NCBI GenBank assembly: GCA_029856155.1
Contig: JAHQWL010000056.1
Location: 1-33,453 of the forward strand
Length of the DNA: 33,453 nucleotides
Direction of reading: 5' to 3'
DNA from: Promethearchaeia archaeon
Lineage (GTDB): Archaea > Asgardarchaeota > Lokiarchaeia > Sigyniarchaeales > SOKP01
The translations under genes and the position numbers were made by a program. Each line of letters starts with the position of its first letter. Position 1 is the first letter of the stretch. This document shows, one piece after another, positions 3,466-25,132 of this stretch. The notes under the pieces are model-generated. The model had not been told where the DNA came from. It saw only the letters and a list, made by a program, of their open reading frames with translations, and did not search any database.

Positions 3466-4269
3466 ATGCCTTATTTCAATAATGATGGAGTTAATATATA
3501 TTATGAAACTGTAGGTGAAGGTCCGCCTATATTAATGATTCATGGTTTTGCTTCAAATATAGAACAGAATTGGAAACATACAAAATGGATAAGCACATTA
3601 AAAGATAACTATCGTTTAATTCTTTTAGATTGCCGTGGTCATGGAAAAAGTGATAAACCACATGAAGATTCTTTTTATGGACATGACAAAATGATAAGTG
3701 ATGTTATTATTCTAATGGAAAATTTATCAATTGGAAAAGCTAATTTCTTTGGGTATTCTATGGGAGCATTAATTACATCCCAGTTATTATTACAAAAACC
3801 AGAACTTTTTATATCAGCTATATTAGGAGGTTTTGTATTATATTTACCTCAAAATGAAAAAGAAAGAACTCTTTACAGGGAAAATACACTTCTAAGAATA
3901 GAGGCTTTTAAAGCAGAAAGTATTGAACATATTAAAGATCCTATTGCTCGTAGATTTCGTCAATTTGCTGAAATTGGTGGCAATGATCTAAATGCTTTAG
4001 CTGCAGTTATGGCGGGAACCTTTCAAGAAACACCTGACTTGGTAGGATCTCCTTCTCAATCAAAAGCTTCTTTTAAAAAAGTAAAAACACCAATTTTAAC
4101 TGTTTTAGGATCTGATGATTTTATTCCAGGAGATAAAACATTAATAGCTCAATTGGTACCAAATGCTTGTCACTTCCAAATCCAAGGAAAGGACCATCTA
4201 ACTGTTGTCCCCGATCCAAGATTTAAAATGGTAGTTAAAGCATTTCTGGATTATGTAAATAAAGGATAA
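3466..4269 (+). CDS. Alpha/beta fold hydrolase
   Basis: IHGF, DCRGHGKSDKP, GYSMG nucleophile elbow, D and H triad (GSDD, KDHL); GGAGGTGA SD upstream. Confidence 0.92.
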   Translation: MPYFNNDGVNIYYETVGEGPPILMIHGFASNIEQNWKHTKWISTLKDNYRLILLDCRGHGKSDKPHEDSFYGHDKMISDVIILMENLSIGKANFFGYSMGALITSQLLLQKPELFISAILGGFVLYLPQNEKERTLYRENTLLRIEAFKAESIEHIKDPIARRFRQFAEIGGNDLNALAAVMAGTFQETPDLVGSPSQSKASFKKVKTPILTVLGSDDFIPGDKTLIAQLVPNACHFQIQGKDHLTVVPDPRFKMVVKAFLDYVNKG

Positions 4270-4340: not shown

Positions 4341-5168
4341 TTATAACTTTCCTATAAACATTGCTAATACAAATAATGAGCCTAAAATAGCTAAAGATAA
4401 TACATTTATAGTTCGTGCTATTTTTGGTGTCGGTCGAATAATAAACAATAAATTTAATGGAACCCCAATAACAATAATACTAATCATGCAAATCAGGTAC
4501 CCAATACCAAATAAACCTAGTAAGTAAATTACTATTCCAATAATATAAGCAATAAATTCATTTATTAAAAGAAAGTATCCCCCCCATTGAATTCCATATT
4601 TTTTAGGAATTGTATTCGTATCAGTTTTCTGATCATAAGGGAGATCTCTTGTGTCTCCAAGAACTCTTGCTCCAGTCATAGCAAAAAACAGAAATAATGC
4701 TAAAAGTATCACACTTAATTCAAATTTATAGGCAAAAAGAGCCCCAATCAGAACATAGAATCCTTGAAGAGTTCCTAAACTGAAGGCACGCAAGAGAGCA
4801 GAATCAAATAATCCTTTTACAAGGCCACCAATAACTCCTATTAAACATGCTAAGGGGATAAGTGCCCAAGGATTTATTATAATACATATTACACTACTAA
4901 TAGTAAAGCATGAGATAATGATTATAAGACCTCCTCTTGGAGATAATTTACCTCTCGCTATAGGATTTTTCAAGTTACCAGATTCACGATCCTTATTATA
5001 ATCTCCAAGATAATCAAAGAAAAATCCCCCAGCTGATAAAGTTGCTCCCACTAAGCCTGCTAGTAGAATATTTATCAGTGACCCTTCTAACCCAAATGAA
5101 ACTGAACTTGTTATAAAAAAAAACATGAGAATTCTGCCTAAACGCTAATCTCCAAATATAGTTTTCAT
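4341..5168 (-). CDS. UbiA-family prenyltransferase; probable start ATG 5168 with an in-frame TAG at codon 8 (5145-5147); alternative start 5126
   Basis: Asp-rich motifs DYLGDYNKD and DTRDLPYD, NPIARG, about 8 TM helices; upstream frame reads MKTIFGD*RLGRILMFFF. Confidence 0.82.
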
Positions 5169-7308: not shown

Positions 7309-7457
7309 ATGTCAGCAAATTATACAAAAATTTTGTAATACGTAGTATAAGGATTTAATTTTTTATTTAAGATATCTTAATTTTGGACAGAATAAACAAT
7401 GGTTTATTGATTTTAGTATTATTATCTTAAAACAAAAAAATAGCATTTTAGGTAGGG

Positions 7458-7512
7458 TCAGGTTAACCTCTTTTTGCTTCTCATTTATCTCGAAAGAGAT
7501 GGCTTTCATCAA
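7458..7512 (-). ncRNA. Candidate box C/D-like small RNA
   Basis: Minus strand: TTGATGA (C), 12 nt, TCGA (D'-like), ATGAGA (C'-like), 17 nt, CTGA (D); 55 nt, intergenic. Confidence 0.25.
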
Positions 7513-7558
7513 TTAAAAGATTGAAGTTTCCTCATCAATTAAAAGCATTGGGTTTTCT
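7506..7558. repeat. Imperfect tandem direct repeat, 26-nt period (TCATCAATTAAAAG core)
   Basis: tcatcaattaaaagattgaagtttcc followed by tcatcaattaaaagcattgggttttct. Confidence 0.7.
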
Positions 7559-7840
7559 TGATTTTTATTGATAAAGTTAAAGAGAAAATTCTAGGAAAAA
7601 AAGCTGCAACAATCTTTAGTTTATAAATTTTTAATTTATTTTTTTAATATTTCCAAAATATTCTGTTCTTTAATACTAAAAATTATTAATTAAAACTGAG
7701 ATTTTTAATAAGAACAATCATACTTTTGATAATTTGTTTATAATGGGTAATTTTTTATTGTTTGCTTTGCTAATTAAACAATAGTCTATTTAAATAAATA
7801 TCAATCATAATCATTTAAGATTAAAAGAGTTCTAGAGTAC

Positions 7841-9031
7841 ATGATTATCTCATTTCCAAATATGGGTCCTAATTGGGTAGCATTTAAAACATTATTCGAA
7901 GTCTTAGATCCATCAATAAAAGTGATCCTACCTGATCCAACTAATAGAGAAGCCATTAAAGTCGGCGTAAAATACAGTCCTGAGTTTGTTTGCTTTCCAT
8001 TTAAAGCCACCTTAGGAGATTTTGTTAATGCAATAAAAAAGGGTGCAGATACTTTAGTTATGGCTATAGATTGTGGGCCTTGTAGATTTGGATTTTATCA
8101 TGCGGTACAAGAACGCATTTTACATGATATGGGTTACAAACATGTGAGAATAATTCCATTAGATCAAGCAGATTTACTAGAATTTCATTGGGTAAAAACT
8201 CTCCAAGATATTAGTGGTAAAAGCGGTCTATTTTCGTATCCAAGATTCGTAAAAGCAGTGATTTTTTTCTTGAAGAAAGCAAAATTTTTACAAGACATTC
8301 AAACTGCAGAAGGTTTGTTCCGTGCATATGAACGAAATCAAGGAGATACTACAGAAGTGTTGAATAGTATATTAAATAAGCTTGATCAAGCTAATACGCT
8401 TAAAGAACTACGAAATTTTAAAAAAGTAATCAAGGAAGATTTTAATAAAATTGATGTTGATAAAACACGAACTCCTTTACGTGCAGCTATATTTGGTGAA
8501 ATTCATATAAGCTTAGAACCATATGTTAATGTAGACATTAGACGTAAGCTTGGAGAAATGGGTATAGAGATACATCAAAATCTAAGTTTATGGGATTGGG
8601 TTTCGCATAAATTCCACTTGAATTTTCATCGAAGATGGTTAGAACACTTATCTCATCCACACCTTCCTATGGATATTGGAGGAGAGTGCCAATGGGTTCT
8701 TGGCGAGTATATAGACCGAGCTAATAGTGGTTTTGACGGTGCTGTTCATTGCTATCCTTTTACATGTATGCCAGAGGTGACCGCAAGGACTATTATTACA
8801 AATAAACTTAAGCAAATGTATGATCTTCCGATTATATATTTCTCTTTTGATGAGCATTCTGGTACTGAGGGAATGAGGACGAGATTAGAAGCATTTGTAG
8901 ATTTAATGGAATCAAGACGTAAGCATAAATTAGGACTTGAAAAGATCTCATTTGAAGATAATAAGATGAATTTTTATAAATCAAATGGATCACATTTTTT
9001 TCAAGAGTGTATTCAATTAATTCAGGCATAA
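7841..9031 (+). CDS. COG3581 / PlsR-like Fe-S subunit (2-hydroxyacyl-CoA dehydratase D-component superfamily)
   Basis: SPEFVCFPFK, GPCRFGFY, GEIH..EP..N, PFTCMPE, FDEHSGTEGMRTRLEAFVDL. Confidence 0.85.
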   Translation: MIISFPNMGPNWVAFKTLFEVLDPSIKVILPDPTNREAIKVGVKYSPEFVCFPFKATLGDFVNAIKKGADTLVMAIDCGPCRFGFYHAVQERILHDMGYKHVRIIPLDQADLLEFHWVKTLQDISGKSGLFSYPRFVKAVIFFLKKAKFLQDIQTAEGLFRAYERNQGDTTEVLNSILNKLDQANTLKELRNFKKVIKEDFNKIDVDKTRTPLRAAIFGEIHISLEPYVNVDIRRKLGEMGIEIHQNLSLWDWVSHKFHLNFHRRWLEHLSHPHLPMDIGGECQWVLGEYIDRANSGFDGAVHCYPFTCMPEVTARTIITNKLKQMYDLPIIYFSFDEHSGTEGMRTRLEAFVDLMESRRKHKLGLEKISFEDNKMNFYKSNGSHFFQECIQLIQA

Positions 9032-9044
9032 TAAAGGTTTAATT

Positions 9045-10067
9045 ATGGTACAAGTTTCAGATAAAGTAGTTAAAGAAGACGGAAAGCTTGATGCCTTTCT
9101 TGGAATCGATATAGGAAGTGTTACGTGTAAATTTGTTTTAATGGGCATGGACGGTAATCTCCTCACAAGTGTATTTTTAAGGAATAGAGGTTCTCCTATC
9201 GACTCTGCTAAGGCAGGCATGGAAGATTTAAGAGAAAAAGTCGAAAAAAATGAAGAACTACAAGAATACACAATACGTTGTTGTGGAACTACGGGTTCAG
9301 CAAGGTATTTAACGAAAGCTATTGTAGGGGGAGATCTTGCGAAAACAGAAATTATTGCACATGCAGTTGCAACTCAATCATTATATCCTGATGTAAGCAC
9401 TATCTTAGAAATTGGTGGTCAAGATTCTAAAATCATCATTTTGCGTGATGGAATAATTGTAGATTTTGCAATGAATTCAGTATGCGCTGCTGGTACTGGT
9501 TCTTTTCTTGATCATCAAGCTTCTAGATTGGGTATTCCGATTGAGCAATTTGGAGATTATGCTGTGAAATCTAAAAATCCCGTGAGCATCGCTGGAAGAT
9601 GTACGGTATTTGCTGAGTCTGATATGATCCATAAACAGAATGCAGGGTATTCTAAAGAGGATATTATAGCTGGTTTATGTGATTCATTAGTTAGAAATTA
9701 TATGAATAATTTATCTAAGGGAAAGGAATTAGACGAACCAATAGTTTTCCAAGGAGGAGTATCATATAATAAAGGTATCATTGAAGCTTTTGAAAGACAT
9801 TTGGGTTGTGAAGTAATCGTACCGAAATATAATGTTTTAATGGGAGCTTTAGGAATGGCAATCCTCGTAAGAGATTATTATCTAGATAACCATACAGAGA
9901 CTTTATTCAGAGGACTTGATGTAGGGGATATAGAATTCAAAACATCAACATTCCACTGTGGAGATTGTCCAAATAATTGTGAAATAGTTCAAGTTAAAAT
10001 GCCTCAAGACGAAAATAAAGTAATTGCCCGTTGGGGTAGTAGATGTGGAAAATGGGAGGTATTTTAG
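9045..10067 (+). CDS. ATP-dependent acyl-CoA dehydratase activase (HgdC / BadF-BadG-BcrA-BcrD family) with C-terminal CxxCxxxC...C motif
   Basis: GIDIGSVTCK, TTGSAR, EIGGQDSK, MNSVCAAGTGSFL, GRCTVFAESD, FQGGV; tail CGDCPNNC...WGSRCGKW. Confidence 0.93.
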   Translation: MVQVSDKVVKEDGKLDAFLGIDIGSVTCKFVLMGMDGNLLTSVFLRNRGSPIDSAKAGMEDLREKVEKNEELQEYTIRCCGTTGSARYLTKAIVGGDLAKTEIIAHAVATQSLYPDVSTILEIGGQDSKIIILRDGIIVDFAMNSVCAAGTGSFLDHQASRLGIPIEQFGDYAVKSKNPVSIAGRCTVFAESDMIHKQNAGYSKEDIIAGLCDSLVRNYMNNLSKGKELDEPIVFQGGVSYNKGIIEAFERHLGCEVIVPKYNVLMGALGMAILVRDYYLDNHTETLFRGLDVGDIEFKTSTFHCGDCPNNCEIVQVKMPQDENKVIARWGSRCGKWEVF

Positions 10068-10071
10068 GAAT

Positions 10072-10266
10072 ATGACAGAATTTATAAAACAGATGAAAGA
10101 CTTGGGAGAGGAGTTTCTTGAAACTCTTAAGCATAAAACTAAGTTAAGTACGATTTTTGACCTTTATACAGAAAAGGTCATTCCCACGTTTGTTTCAGAA
10201 AAAGATTTAAAAAAATATTATTCAAAAAAAATGGAAGAAGTAAATGATTTTATAGATAAATTATAA
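10072..10266 (+). CDS. Small hypothetical helical protein (64 aa, MTEFIKQMKD...)
   Basis: ATG 4 nt after the activase stop with GGAGG/AGGA upstream; ends 17 nt before the next gene. Confidence 0.7.
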   Translation: MTEFIKQMKDLGEEFLETLKHKTKLSTIFDLYTEKVIPTFVSEKDLKKYYSKKMEEVNDFIDKL

Positions 10267-10283
10267 TAAGAGGTAATAAAAAA

Positions 10284-10985
10284 ATGAGTGAAAGTACAAG
10301 TACAGAAATAAAGGATGAAGGAGATAAGTTAAATCCAAAAGTTATTGCTTTTGATATGCTTTATGGTGCTGTAAAAGGACTAAGCGGTTTATTCTTTAAA
10401 GCTTTCATGGATTTAAAAATTGAAGGGAAAGAGAACATTCCCTTCAGAGGAAAAGCGATTTTAACCACAATCACTCCAAACGTAATCCGAGATATGTTAA
10501 TAATAGCTCAGGTATCAGGGCGAAAAATTCATTTTATGCTTGATCCAAAATTAATGAAGCATCAAATTGCCGGTCCGGTTTTAAAAAGTCTTGGAATGAT
10601 TCGAGGAACTGAAAATAAAGAAGATACTGAACCAATCGAAAAAGTATTTGAAATATTAAACGAGAAAGGTGATCTCGTAGGTATGACACCTGAATCAAGA
10701 CATGATCGTGAAGTACAGATAAAATCGATGGCGGCAATAATAAAATTTGCAATTGCAGGAGACGCTCCAATTATTCCAATAGCCATTTCTACAGAAAAAA
10801 CAAAAATATTAAACATGTTTACTGGAGATGGTCTGAAAGTAAAGATTGGTTCTCCTTTACGTGTCGAAAAAAGATTGAATCGGGAGAAGTATCGAGCTGA
10901 ACGCTATGAGCTCGCGGAAGATATAATAAATATTATTGAATCTTTGAAAGAAGTACCCGAATCTAAAGAACGCAATAATAATTAA
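10284..10985 (+). CDS. PlsC/LPLAT acyltransferase-fold protein with degenerate catalytic motifs
   Basis: IEGKENIP, IHFM, APIIPIAI, VKIGSPL match PlsC; HX4D replaced by TITPNVIRD and FPEGTR by TPESRH. Confidence 0.8.
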   Translation: MSESTSTEIKDEGDKLNPKVIAFDMLYGAVKGLSGLFFKAFMDLKIEGKENIPFRGKAILTTITPNVIRDMLIIAQVSGRKIHFMLDPKLMKHQIAGPVLKSLGMIRGTENKEDTEPIEKVFEILNEKGDLVGMTPESRHDREVQIKSMAAIIKFAIAGDAPIIPIAISTEKTKILNMFTGDGLKVKIGSPLRVEKRLNREKYRAERYELAEDIINIIESLKEVPESKERNNN

Positions 10986-11021
10986 ATTATATTTTTTCTC
11001 TATTTTTTAATACAATTTTGG

Positions 11022-11993
11022 TTATATTACTATTGTGAAATTAATTGATAGAAATAAAATTAGAAACAATATCAATACTATTCCATCTTTCAGGACTAAG
11101 CTTTGCTTTTTTGACATAAAAATAAAATAGATTATTATTATTGCTAATAGGAACCAATTCCAAAACAAAATCCATAAGAATTGGAAATTCGTAATAAAAA
11201 TAGCGCTAATTCCAAAAGTGAGTGTTAAATTCCAAATTACTTTTCCTATCATCCCTCCCAAGCCTATTTCAATGCTCTTCTTTTTTATAGATTTTATAAC
11301 TAATGTTAATTCCTCAACATTTGTTATGAAAGCAATTATAATGAGTCCAAAGAAAGTTTCTGGGATATTAGTCCGTATTATAATTTGTTCTGCGGTAAAA
11401 ATTAATAATTCTCCTCCTAAAAAAATAGATATAAAGCTAGTAATGATTAAAATAATTTTTTTACTTTTTGATTGTGCTTTTAATTCTTGATTGTCATTAT
11501 TACTCTTCATAAGATTTTCTATTGAACTAAATCTAATAGAACTTCCTTTAGAGAATTGTTTTATATTCCTAATCAAATATACAAAATATATGATAATAGC
11601 GATGATTCCAATAAATAGCATTCCAAAATTAACAATAATTCCAAGAAGGATTAAAATAAGGGAAATATACAATAATACAAAGTAAAATTGAGGAATTTTT
11701 TTAAAATCTACTTTATAGAAAAAGGCGGGAATAGCAAAACTTATTGTCAGCGCAAATATTGAGTTACCGATAACATTTCCTATTGCGAGGTACGAAAGTC
11801 CATTAATAGCAGCGATGATCGAAGCAATTGATTCTTCTGGATCGATGCCAATGAGTAATGCTCCAATAACAAAAGGGGATATTCCATATAGTATACAAAC
11901 TTCTTTTAAATTATCTAAAAAGACATCTGCAGCAAAATATATTATTAAATAACCAATAATGAATAATATAATTGATAGGCTAATGTCTAACAT
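11022..11993 (-). CDS. Ca2+/cation antiporter (CaCA, YrbG-like)
   Basis: About 10 TM helices in two repeats, GISPFVIG, AIGNVIGNS, IPETFFGL; alpha-repeats GIDPEE and TNVEEL. Confidence 0.85.
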   Translation of the reverse strand: MLDISLSIILFIIGYLIIYFAADVFLDNLKEVCILYGISPFVIGALLIGIDPEESIASIIAAINGLSYLAIGNVIGNSIFALTISFAIPAFFYKVDFKKIPQFYFVLLYISLILILLGIIVNFGMLFIGIIAIIIYFVYLIRNIKQFSKGSSIRFSSIENLMKSNNDNQELKAQSKSKKIILIITSFISIFLGGELLIFTAEQIIIRTNIPETFFGLIIIAFITNVEELTLVIKSIKKKSIEIGLGGMIGKVIWNLTLTFGISAIFITNFQFLWILFWNWFLLAIIIIYFIFMSKKQSLVLKDGIVLILFLILFLSINFTIVI

Positions 11994-12737: not shown

Positions 12738-13886
12738 ATGGTCGATTATATTAAGATAGAGGGCACACCCAAAGAAAGAGGACTGCAACAAGGAGAACAA
12801 TTGAAAGACAAAATTCATAATATGTTCGATATTGTCTTTCATTCAAAAATGTTTTCCGAAGTCACATCTAAATTAATTCCTCTCTCAATAATTAAACTTG
12901 GTTTAGGTATTATGGGTAAAAAGAATATAAAGAAGTCCTTACAAAAATTTGTTCCTAATCAGTATGAAAAAATGATTTCAATAGGTAAAACAGCTTCTAT
13001 AAAAAAATACATAATTCATGGAGCTCACTTTATCGAAGTGATGTCAGGTGATCCAAAATCTCTTTATAAGAATCCTCCCGTTCAAGCCTGTTCAATGATA
13101 TTTGCACTTCCTGAAGCTACATCAGATAATTCAATGATTTTTGGGCGTAATTATGATTTTCCTAACGTTCTCCAACCATTTCAAGTAATACGAGAAGAAA
13201 TACCCGAAGAGGGATATAAAAATATAAATTTTACCCAATATCCTCTTACAGGATGTCATATGGGATTGAATGCAAAAGGGTTAGCTATTGGATATAATTA
13301 CGGCCGTTCTTGGAAGCAAAATCCCATCGATTTTAGATTAAAGGGCGTCCCTGGCACATTTATAGTACAAGAAATGCTCGAAACTTGTGCATCAACTCAA
13401 GAAGCTGCTACATTTATCACTAACTTTACTGGTCGTTCAAATGGATGCCATTATGGGTTCATGGATGCATCAGGAGATACATGTGTTATTGAAACAACAA
13501 GCACTCGCCATGCAATCCGTCGCCCTGAAGATGGAATACTTGCTCATACTAATCATTACCAAACTAACGAACTAAGAGACGCTAATTTACCAGACTATGT
13601 ACGGTTCAAAATGGATGATATGGATATAAATCCTATTGAATCTCCAATAAGACGCTATCAGCGAGAGATCGAATTACTTAAGAAACTCAAAGGGCAAATT
13701 AATATAGATACAATTAAAAATATTTTAAGTGATCATGATAACAGAGAACCAGATGATTTCACAGTCTGTACACATGGCTCCGAAGCAGGTACTTTAGGAT
13801 CAATAATAGTCCTCCCAACTAAAAAGGAATTTTGGGTCACTGATAATCATCCTTGTAGTTCTGAATATGAGAGATTTAGATTATAA
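12738..13886 (+). CDS. Peptidase C45 / acyl-CoA:6-aminopenicillanate acyltransferase-like Ntn hydrolase
   Basis: GTPKERGLQQG, A-CS autocleavage Cys, FGRNYD, GLNAKGL, AHTNHY; AAGGAGG SD. Confidence 0.9.
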   Translation: MVDYIKIEGTPKERGLQQGEQLKDKIHNMFDIVFHSKMFSEVTSKLIPLSIIKLGLGIMGKKNIKKSLQKFVPNQYEKMISIGKTASIKKYIIHGAHFIEVMSGDPKSLYKNPPVQACSMIFALPEATSDNSMIFGRNYDFPNVLQPFQVIREEIPEEGYKNINFTQYPLTGCHMGLNAKGLAIGYNYGRSWKQNPIDFRLKGVPGTFIVQEMLETCASTQEAATFITNFTGRSNGCHYGFMDASGDTCVIETTSTRHAIRRPEDGILAHTNHYQTNELRDANLPDYVRFKMDDMDINPIESPIRRYQREIELLKKLKGQINIDTIKNILSDHDNREPDDFTVCTHGSEAGTLGSIIVLPTKKEFWVTDNHPCSSEYERFRL

Positions 13887-23731: not shown

Positions 23732-25132
23732 ATGAATGAAAAATGTGAAATTCTTATTGTAGGTGCAGGAACTGCTGGTACCTATTTAGGATGGCTCCTT
23801 GCTAAAAAAGGATTTTCAGTAGTTATTATTGAAAAGGATAAGAGGGAGGAGGTAGGAAAAAGATTGGATGTGATTCATTTTGAATCAGATAGGGTTGAGA
23901 AAGCAGGTATTCCACCATTTCAAGTAGGAGCACCAGATTGCATTGAAATTAGAGATGTTTCGACAGTAGTTACTCCAGATTTCAAAAAAGAGTTAAAAAT
24001 TAGAGCTTTACAAACTATTGTACGTTTAACACCATTTTTAAACCGAATGTATTCAGTATTAGAATCTGACGGGGTTAAATTGGAATTTACATGTAAATTT
24101 AAAAGTCTGATTATTGAGAACAATCAAATAGTCGGTTTAGTTGCTGAAAAAGGAGGAAAGAGCATAGAATATCGAACAGAACTTGTTATAGATGCTTCCG
24201 GTAAAGCTGCAGTTATAAGAACATCCTTACCTGAAGATTATGGCGTAGAAACATTCAATTTAGGACCTAATGATGTTATGTATGTCCTCTTACAATATAT
24301 CAAGTGGGAAAAACCAGAAGAGCCTCACCCAACCGCAAACACGGATTATAATTGGTGGTTATTATGGTTTGGTCCATCTTATGATCCAGAAGGAGCAATA
24401 TTAGGGGTTGGTCAACCCGGATCTTTTGATAATGCTCGGTTAGCGCGTGAAGATTTTCTTAAAAGAGCAGATCTACCTCCTTATGAAATAATCAAAAAAG
24501 AACAAGGAAGTACTCCATATAGAAGACCACCACATTCTTTAGTTGCGGATAGATTTTTATGTATTGGAGATGCTGCTGCAATTACCTATCCTTTTTCAGG
24601 CCATGGAGTAACAGCAACTTGGGTATTATGTATGATTGCTTCGGATGTTATAGAAGAAAATCTAAAGAATGGAAAGGATTTAACTAGGGATGTACTCTGG
24701 GAAATCAATGTGAGATATTATAGAAATCAGGGGGCAAAATTTGCAAGTCTTTTTACTCAATTGTCAGGAGTTTTGAATTTTAATGAAAAGGAATGGGATT
24801 ATTTTCTAAAGAAAGGATTGATTTATCAAACTGGAGAGGGAGAAGATATACCTGAGCCAAATAAAGAGTATGAAGAAGAGATGAGTATGGGTGAAATGCT
24901 GAATTTCTTATTCAAAATTTTGGGAGGTCTATTTCGCAGAAAATTGTCTTTTAAACATATGAAGAGTTTATTACAAGCAAATGGACTTGCTGGAAAAATA
25001 AAGAAACATTATGAAAATTATCCAGAAAATATAAAAGAATTTGATGATTGGGTCAAAAAGTCTCAAGAATTGTGGACTCAGAAAAAAACAGCAGTAAAGA
25101 AACTTCCCTCAGTAACTATTGAATATCATTAA
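23732..25132 (+). CDS. FAD-dependent oxidoreductase, geranylgeranyl reductase-like superfamily
   Basis: IVGAGTAG Rossmann motif, VIDASG, IGDAAAITYPFSGHG. Confidence 0.85.
   Translation: MNEKCEILIVGAGTAGTYLGWLLAKKGFSVVIIEKDKREEVGKRLDVIHFESDRVEKAGIPPFQVGAPDCIEIRDVSTVVTPDFKKELKIRALQTIVRLTPFLNRMYSVLESDGVKLEFTCKFKSLIIENNQIVGLVAEKGGKSIEYRTELVIDASGKAAVIRTSLPEDYGVETFNLGPNDVMYVLLQYIKWEKPEEPHPTANTDYNWWLLWFGPSYDPEGAILGVGQPGSFDNARLAREDFLKRADLPPYEIIKKEQGSTPYRRPPHSLVADRFLCIGDAAAITYPFSGHGVTATWVLCMIASDVIEENLKNGKDLTRDVLWEINVRYYRNQGAKFASLFTQLSGVLNFNEKEWDYFLKKGLIYQTGEGEDIPEPNKEYEEEMSMGEMLNFLFKILGGLFRRKLSFKHMKSLLQANGLAGKIKKHYENYPENIKEFDDWVKKSQELWTQKKTAVKKLPSVTIEYH

Follow-up and report, generated by a model that had tools for sequence, protein, structure and literature searches.

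Here, we analysed a 33,453-nucleotide (nt) stretch of DNA (the window), which is the entire contig JAHQWL010000056.1 (C56) of a 4.1-Mb, 97% complete Lokiarchaeial assembly (GCA_029856155.1). Four of its genes, encoding a reductase subunit (Red2), an activase, a 64-amino-acid (aa) protein and a protein of PlsC fold, form the downstream half of a conserved Lokiarchaeial seven-gene cluster, which in this genus is split between the window and a second contig, C68. The cluster joins PlsC-type acyltransferases to the parts of an enzyme related to the bacterial plasmalogen synthase PlsA/PlsR and the glycerol ester reductase Ger. We regard it as an evenly balanced proposition that this cluster constitutes a PlsC-fed, ATP-dependent ester-to-ether lipid system, in which the ester-to-ether chemistry is suggested by analogy with these enzymes.

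The four genes lie on the forward strand with spacers of 13, 4 and 17 nt, an arrangement given in a preliminary description of this DNA with which the open reading frame (ORF) coordinates agree. They are the Red2 gene (7841..9031, 396 aa; ORF and Pfam evidence), the activase gene (9045..10067, 340 aa; ORF plus Pfam and NCBIfam), the gene for the 64-aa protein (10072..10266, counted from ATG, with an alternative TTG start at 10024 that would extend the product to 80 aa) and a fourth gene (10284..10985, 233 aa, PF01553), whose product we call the His-less PlsC for reasons given below. Because of the tight spacing, the Shine-Dalgarno-like GGAGGT/GAGGT motifs 5' of the third and fourth genes and a T-run found solely 3' of the fourth, the four genes are likely to be co-transcribed. 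The T-rich tail itself (10986..11021, forward strand, read directly from the sequence) likely serves as an archaeal oligo-T terminator, and an AT-rich, non-coding leader of ~530 nt 5' of Red2 (7309..7840, forward strand), devoid of ORFs of at least 50 aa, is presumably the promoter region of the window's half-operon in this genus. The 6–8 kb interval is the GC minimum of the window (0.244). Relatives of the Red2 gene at 72–96% identity occur in metagenome-assembled genomes (MAGs) named Promethearchaeota, Loki-, Hermod-, Thor-, Odin- or Hodarchaeota, which confirms the Asgard origin proposed initially.

The preliminary description noted, correctly, that the window encodes no separate DUF2229 subunit, and took the system to be a minimal one. 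The latter does not hold, since the window carries only half of the system and the partner subunit, Red1, is encoded on C68 of the same genome, where a genome scan for DUF2229 located it (352 aa; PF09989 (DUF2229), E = 1.8e-45, positions 1–217 of 218). Red1 also bears a C-terminal piece of the HGD-D domain and begins 21 nt past a 557-aa tandem PlsC gene. The tandem PlsC contains two PF01553 domains (1.5e-56), scores 164.6 bits against TIGR00530, well above the cut-off of 102.95, and has intact HX4D and (F/Y)PEGT motifs in both domains; a HAD-IA phosphatase gene precedes it. In sister genera of the same family, all of these genes form one contiguous cluster in the order HAD, PlsC-PlsC, Red1, Red2, activase, 64-aa protein and His-less PlsC (loci L037, L042, L044, L045 and many more). 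The sister family f2 has PlsC, PlsC, Red1, Red2 and activase at 47–57% identity, in a version of the cluster without the 64-aa gene and the His-less PlsC.

We quantified this linkage in the best 80 species-level loci from a scan of genome contigs, among which there are only uncultured MAGs. Where at least 2.3 kb of sequence was available downstream of Red2 (65 loci), the activase was present in 63, the 64-aa gene in 61 and the His-less PlsC in 59; this gene arrangement is thus not due to chance. Upstream, with at least 3.3 kb available in 47 loci, Red1 was found in 20, the tandem PlsC in 19 and HAD in 16, the other loci having either a paralogous module inserted there or the split layout of this genus, where a UbiA-family gene and one of 116 aa lie upstream. 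The association with PlsC seen in the window is therefore conserved, and it is stronger than it first appeared, as a second, tandem PlsC with intact HX4D motifs precedes Red1.

By their domain content, Red1 and Red2 are paralogous subunits of the DUF2229/HGD-D type. Red2 matches DUF2229 at residues 8–72 (E = 3.6e-10, above the cut-off) and carries a C-terminal piece of HGD-D at residues 296–354, which is below the cut-off; on the two Red subunits the HGD-D (PF06050) match covers ~60 C-terminal residues only, scoring 22.8 and 26.2 bits where the cut-off is 28.4. The invariant residues of Red2 are C51, C81, C309, H303 and E312, and Red1 has invariant cysteines (C63, C101 and C286) at motifs equivalent to the three of Red2; by analogy with HadBC, three invariant cysteines per subunit fit one [4Fe-4S] cluster each. 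The AlphaFold model of Red2 (predicted local distance difference test score (pLDDT) 87, predicted template modelling score (pTM) 0.89) yielded Foldseek matches at E <=1e-3 only to catalytic subunits from the ATP-dependent radical enzyme superfamily, namely those of DCCP, HadBC and the Bzd/Mbd reductases; Red2 thus has the fold of this superfamily. When Red1 and Red2 were searched against PDB sequences, HadC was a marginal match (E = 0.002 and 0.58), and no PlsA or Ger structure was found. The activase is a clear member of its family (BcrAD_BadFG, PF01869, 1.1e-46; TIGR00241 acyl-CoA dehydratase activase, 9.6e-59), with HadI (E = 4e-36), HgdC, MbdQ and DCCP-R as its PDB relatives.

The bacterial plasmalogen synthase PlsAR is built of the domains Act1, Act2, Red1 and Red2 (PMC12838417). 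Ger, with the architecture BBDHDDH, turns an sn-1 ester into an ether, and its 'BB' part, the two activase domains, is conserved in all alkyl-ether producers (PMC13159169). The activase, Red1 and Red2 are collinear with ~1400-aa bacterial proteins in which the domains are ordered BcrAD, BcrAD, DUF2229, HGD-D: residues 14–339 of the activase correspond to Act2 and the linker that follows it, Red1 to ~660–990 and Red2 to ~1000–1400 of the fused proteins, and profiles built from Asgard alignments returned the same collinearity. At the level of these alignments, the three proteins reproduce, as separate genes, the Act-Red1-Red2 layout of PlsA/PlsR and Ger-type proteins. The correspondence extends to the C-terminal tail of the activase, which reads C-G-D-C-P-N-N-C ... 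R-C, in line with the CxxCxxxC...RC pattern noted before. The consensus of this tail, F-x-C-x2-C-x-N-x-C-E ... R-C-x-K-(W/Y), is common to the Act2 tails of fused proteins, whereas in our alignment neither Act1 nor this genome's other activases have it; by our own deduction from this pattern, the four-Cys tail may be regarded as a family-defining feature. One of those other activases, the fourth of the genome (260 aa, tail-less; C17:7263-9018, L061), follows a ketopantoate-reductase/GpsA-like dehydrogenase and an aldehyde:ferredoxin oxidoreductase, and no Red-type partner was seen near it on that short contig.

Compared with PlsA/PlsR (Clostridium perfringens; encoded by a single gene in Enterococcus and Lactococcus) and Ger (Thermotoga maritima Tmari_0479, Desulfatibacillum alkenivorans SHJ90043), the Lokiarchaeial system thus has the same parts in the same order, with a four-Cys tail after Act2 and three conserved cysteines per Red unit, and it shares with them an anaerobic host and an association with glycerolipid genes. 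Matches to DUF2229 were likewise present in the control genomes of Thermotoga maritima and Lactococcus lactis, a comparison that concerns presence only. The differences are that PlsA/PlsR and Ger are encoded by one or two genes, whereas the Lokiarchaeial reductase comprises three separate ones; that, unlike them, it is coupled in an operon to three PlsC domains, a HAD phosphatase and the 64-aa protein; and that the host of the split system is an archaeon, while PlsA/PlsR and Ger belong to bacteria.

We placed the Red units in an IQ-TREE phylogeny of 59 rows, which agrees with a quick tree and does not include the characterised PlsA, PlsR and Ger sequences among its rows. Red1 and Red2 units part with a support of 100/100, and in both halves the fused BB-DH-DH proteins are united in a clade of their own (100/100 and 100/99), as are the members of the split Asgard system (100/100 and 100/99), which lies with ~725-aa Red1-Red2 fusions. 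Since the topologies of the two halves agree, Red1 and Red2 co-evolved as a pair. The preliminary description had assigned the window's genes to a module of PlsA/Ger type. What stands of this is the DUF2229 branch and the collinearity with Act2-Red1-Red2, but the trees place the split system outside the fused clade, and on this evidence it is a sister subfamily to the fused proteins of PlsA/Ger architecture, not their orthologue. The placement also bears on the 'Ger homologues' reported in Lokiarchaeota at e <=1e-50 and a query coverage of >=30% (Sahonero-Canavesi et al., PMC13159169): because a subunit of 340–400 aa could hardly pass such a coverage filter, the published homologues are most likely of the fused type. 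Some Lokiarchaeia do encode a 977-aa BcrAD-BcrAD-DUF2229 protein, the Red1 unit of which falls, on a long branch, into the fused bacterial clade; in one locus (L040:13475-17835) it is followed by a 469-aa protein without a Pfam match, resulting in a two-gene layout like that of PlsA/PlsR. This is probably the kind of 'Ger homologue' that was reported. A protein of the 977-aa type was not found in the genome to which the window belongs, where only four activase domains were detected.

The nearest non-Asgard relatives that we found are the ~725-aa Red1-Red2 fusions mentioned above, annotated as 'acyl-CoA dehydratase activase-related protein' (P0130, P0132, P0135 and P0139). They are 31–36% identical to Red1 and Red2, score 243–283 bits against the Asgard profiles and fall on the Asgard side of the tree, and a single separate activase gene (~320–340 aa) adjoins them in two of the three loci examined. 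In contrast to the Asgard cluster, their two Red units are fused, and they are found next to a full-length BB-D protein or an alpha/beta hydrolase, with no PlsC, HAD, 64-aa protein or His-less PlsC.

More distant enzymes share folds and principles with the Lokiarchaeial system. The top Foldseek matches of the Red2 model are structures of Carboxydothermus DCCP (YjiM/YjiL type; 7yyl and 6eno, E ~4e-7), whose partner DCCP-R is a homologue of the window's activase; the sequence identity between DCCP and Red2 is, however, only 11–13%, and Red1/Red2 are heteromeric with three invariant cysteines per subunit, unlike DCCP. A double-cubane cluster needs more ligands than three cysteines per subunit can provide. 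HgdAB/HadBC with HgdC/HadI, as well as the class I benzoyl-CoA reductases, share the Red2 fold (template modelling (TM) score ~0.5) and the activator family, the match of Red2 to the HadBC structures 3o3m and 3o3n (Foldseek E 3e-6 to 4e-5) being one at the superfamily level only. ATP-driven electron injection is a principle common to the 2-hydroxyacyl-CoA dehydratase family. The dehydratases and benzoyl-CoA reductases differ from the Lokiarchaeial system in that the HGD-D match is confined to the last ~60 residues of Red2, the N-terminal motifs of which are those of DUF2229, and in that no genes of a CoA-ester pathway are present in the Lokiarchaeial cluster.

The fourth gene of the window was initially described as encoding a PlsC-fold protein. 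Both PF01553 (34.9 bits, 1.5e-8, against a cut-off of 23) and the fold bear this out, but the catalytic histidine is missing. In all 14 of the 14 orthologues, the His of HX4D is lacking (T-P, S-D or S-K instead), with the Asp retained, as are the Glu of an FPEG-like motif and a (V/I)P(I/V)xP-like motif; generic PlsC proteins that the protein matches at 25–33% identity retain N-H. Its score against TIGR00530 AGP_acyltrn (35.7 bits) is below the cut-off of 102.95. The structural model (pLDDT 71) matches T. maritima PlsC (5kym) first, followed by LpxM, GPAT and PatA; with 5kym it has the fold and PF01553 in common, differing in the absence of the catalytic His and in its restriction to Asgard archaea. 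The family is narrow, with 6 clusters at E <=1e-30 and 29 at <=1e-10 among 1.84 billion representatives. Judging from these features, its product is probably non-catalytic or non-canonical. A prediction of the Red1, Red2 and His-less PlsC complex, with the latter as the scored partner and run without controls, gave an ipSAE of 0.00, which speaks neither for nor against binding. On another Asgard contig (L146:1915-6372), a tandem PlsC and a third domain resembling the His-less PlsC are fused into a protein of 872 aa; genes for a LarA-like (Lar_N/LarA_C) protein and for a HAD hydrolase come next. Together with the sister genome G083, discussed below, this fusion links the His-less PlsC no less closely to the acyltransferase part than to the reductase.

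The short third gene encodes a conserved protein of both acidic and basic character. The codon-position variability of 0.12 / 0.05 / 0.31 over 59 ungapped orthologues shows this ORF to be a real gene under purifying selection; searches of its product returned no Pfam or NCBIfam family and no usable ESM Atlas match.

Just three PF01553 domains were found in the 97% complete genome, all within the seven-gene system. Pfam scans of this genome for glycerol-phosphate dehydrogenases (GpsA and glycerol-1-phosphate (G1P) dehydrogenase) returned weak, generic matches only. Because all three domains sit in one conserved cluster, the PlsC-type genes in this Lokiarchaeial order are not loose bacterial imports. 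To describe the distribution of both parts, we scanned 151 Asgard genomes for PF01553 and searched them with the Red2 protein as a query, the resulting counts being descriptive, as the genomes are related. In family f1, PF01553 occurred in 25/25 genomes and a Red2 relative in 24/25, and in f2 both were present in 2/2. PF01553 was also found throughout f14 (4/4) and f22 (7/7), where no Red2 relative was found, and conversely, f5 had PF01553 in 0/13 genomes and a Red2 relative in 10/13, in the form of a distant Red1-Red2 pair (~33% identity). The coupling of PlsC to the reductase is therefore a feature of this order and not of all Asgards.

We propose the following route. From glycerol phosphate and an acyl donor, the tandem PlsC would make an acyl-ester glycerolipid, e.g. 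lyso-phosphatidate and then phosphatidate. A homodimer of the activase would hydrolyse ATP to drive a low-potential electron into the Red1/Red2 heterodimer. As in PlsAR and Ger, reduction of the ester carbonyl at the Fe-S centres of Red1/Red2 and dehydration of the resulting product would yield an alk-1-enyl ether, which might be reduced further to an alkyl ether. The HAD enzyme would take off the phosphate, and the His-less PlsC and the 64-aa protein may serve as lipid-binding or assembly accessories. That the seven genes amount to a self-contained Lokiarchaeial pathway to non-isoprenoid, fatty-acid-derived alk(en)yl-ether glycerolipids, or to chimeric isoprenyl/alkyl diethers, is a more far-reaching suggestion, which we put forward tentatively and consider doubtful as it stands.

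Several observations weigh against the proposed ester-to-ether route. PlsA and Ger have two fused activase domains, whereas the cluster has a single activase gene, best aligned to Act2, although an activase homodimer could replace the fused pair. In both halves of the tree the split Asgard clade lies outside the fused BB-DH-DH clade, in a phylogeny without the characterised PlsA/PlsR/Ger, so that the substrate of the split system may differ from theirs. The sister genome G083 (contig C6, L150:5142-9421), which is 100% complete, is without Red1, Red2, the activase and the 64-aa gene, yet HAD, PlsC-PlsC and the His-less PlsC persist there as neighbours, with a 204-aa gene of the Toxin-deaminase family inserted among them; the acyltransferase part can thus do without the reductase block, which this sister genome has lost. 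In the genome of the window, no PlsY was found, and in other families the two parts occur apart, with PlsC lacking the reductase in f14 and f22 and the distant Red1-Red2 pair lacking PlsC in f5. Beyond the Asgards, a PF01553 neighbour was present in only 1/6 of the bacterial or uncultured relative loci inspected, and that one was convergent; the idea that adjacency to PlsC is general for this enzyme family was hence rejected. Finally, the one cultured Lokiarchaeon analysed gave only archaeal lipids, although ester lipids may have been overlooked (PMC13400652).

Some of these points are also compatible with an enzyme of the same class and lipid context but of other chemistry, in which the module modifies or degrades acyl chains or esters differently, for instance by dehydration or reduction of hydroxy- or oxo-acyl groups, by reduction to an aldehyde or alcohol, or by remodelling or catabolism of scavenged bacterial phospholipids, with the PlsC domains shuttling acyl groups on and off a carrier lipid. 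We judge this rather unlikely, though it deserves serious consideration: the split system groups with the ~725-aa DH-DH fusions outside the clade of PlsA/Ger architecture, one such fusion adjoins an alpha/beta hydrolase and not a PlsC, the superfamily is diverse, with dehydratases, arene reductases and DCCP matching the Red2 fold about equally well, and one sister genome dispenses with the reductase block. On the other hand, the sole characterised DUF2229-type enzymes named in the cited papers make ethers from esters (PMC13159169), the collinearity with them reaches into the Cys tail of Act2, and intact HX4D acyltransferase domains next to a phosphatase suggest synthesis, not breakdown. A quite improbable variant concerns the acceptor: if PlsC acylated a geranylgeranylglyceryl phosphate (GGGP)-like mono-isoprenyl glycerol phosphate or G1P, the reductase would generate chimeric isoprenyl/alkyl diethers. 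Such lipids have been proposed for Lokiarchaeota (PMC6737245), bacterial PlsC and PlsY accept both glycerol-phosphate stereoisomers (PMC13400652), and a UbiA-family prenyltransferase gene (4341-5126) is conserved just upstream in this genus; the geranylgeranyl-reductase-like flavoprotein in the window and the failure to find PlsY in this genome point the same way. Nevertheless, the sister genera have HAD, PlsC-PlsC and Red1 in the upstream positions and do not include UbiA in the cluster, two intact acyltransferase domains suit two successive acylations, and no chimeric lipid was reported in the literature searched.

Amino-acid fermentation occurs in Lokiarchaeia, and the weak matches of the last 60 residues to Pfam HGD-D and to HadC in the PDB, together with the fold common to HadBC and Bzd/Mbd, might lead one to view the window's genes as a fermentative 2-hydroxyacyl-CoA dehydratase or an enzyme of benzoyl-CoA-reductase type, with lipid genes as mere neighbours. 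This reading is highly improbable and, as far as an amino-acid-fermentation dehydratase is concerned, we rejected it. The HGD-D match is restricted to ~60 residues and falls below the cut-off, while Red1 matches DUF2229 over its full length, the cluster has no CoA-transferase or dehydrogenase genes, and the linkage to PlsC is kept across genera and into a second family. Moreover, the same genome has a separate, canonical 2-hydroxyacyl-CoA-dehydratase-like set (C53:205-4402, L060) with two full-length HGD-D proteins (373 and 437 aa; 8.6e-90 and 4.2e-45, 302 and 155 bits) and two tail-less activases (261 and 300 aa), which lack the Cys tail; the presence of this set argues that the window's genes are not the fermentation dehydratase. 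The preliminary description had named branching with fermentation dehydratases as one of the observations that would speak against its proposal; instead, the subunits belong to the DUF2229 branch, apart from the HgdAB-like pair on C53.

The surroundings of the half-operon are partly conserved as well. Upstream lies the UbiA-family gene, on the reverse strand, and downstream are a CaCA exchanger gene of the Na_Ca_ex family (11022..11993, reverse strand, identified by Pfam), convergent with the half-operon, and an AAT/Ntn-hydrolase-family gene (12738-13886, forward strand). Many related genomes have these three in the same places relative to the half-operon, and the AAT-family gene remains downstream even of the contiguous seven-gene cluster. 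Elsewhere in the window, we noted the geranylgeranyl-reductase-like FAD protein (23732-25132, forward strand) and an alpha/beta hydrolase (3466-4269, forward strand), another of which precedes one of the bacterial-type Red1-Red2 fusions.

In some sister genomes, a paralogous module resides beside or inside the cluster (L040:8281-13141 on contig C38 of G113; L038:8269-12409). It encodes an FAD_binding_4-Red1' fusion (837 aa), Act' (343 aa) and Red2' (441 aa), with ~52% identity to the window's activase and ~41% to Red2, respectively; FAD_binding_4 is also the fold of alkyl-dihydroxyacetone-phosphate synthase, a eukaryotic ether-lipid enzyme. The genome of the window has only truncated remnants of this module (C86:92440-93835), next to a MULE-transposase-like gene at the contig end. 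The Asgard cluster was also encountered at 73–74% identity under the labels 'Candidatus Nanopelagicaceae bacterium' MAG and 'uncultured bacterium' (L116 and L127), which are probably mis-binned contigs.

Parts of this picture have precedents, as homologues of PlsC (PMC6737245, PMC13400652) and of Ger (PMC13159169) have been published for Lokiarchaeota, and the same evolutionary speculation already accompanies them (PMC6737245, PMC13400652, PMC13159169). In the literature searched, we found no description of the split form with a single activase, of the seven-gene cluster with PlsC, of the His-less PlsC partner or of the 64-aa protein. For enzymology, the interest lies in a naturally split, single-activase form of the reductase and in its conserved His-less PlsC-fold partner.

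How a host archaeon whose membranes consisted of isoprenoid ethers gave rise to eukaryotes, whose membranes are fatty-acyl, is still debated; both the PlsC/PlsY homologues of Asgards and their 'Ger homologues' have been put forward as clues (PMC6737245, PMC13159169, PMC13400652). In the cluster, PlsC is accompanied by a split reductase resembling PlsA/Ger, by the dedicated activase of that reductase, by a phosphatase and by two accessory proteins specific to the lineage. What was a loose indication from genomes thereby becomes seven defined genes, amenable to joint expression and assay. The predicted products are alk(en)yl glycerol ethers, their chains being straight or derived from fatty acids. 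They could have escaped detection or been misassigned in the lipid analysis of Asgard cultures, for which it has been noted that ester lipids were possibly overlooked (PMC13400652). For the archaea most closely related to eukaryotes, the cluster is thus a concrete and testable candidate route to ether lipids derived from fatty acids. Should the seven genes indeed form the self-contained pathway suggested above, Asgard PlsC homologues would supply an ether-forming reductase of archaea rather than an ester membrane of bacterial type, and in the lineage nearest to eukaryotes the cluster would represent a biochemical bridge over the lipid divide.

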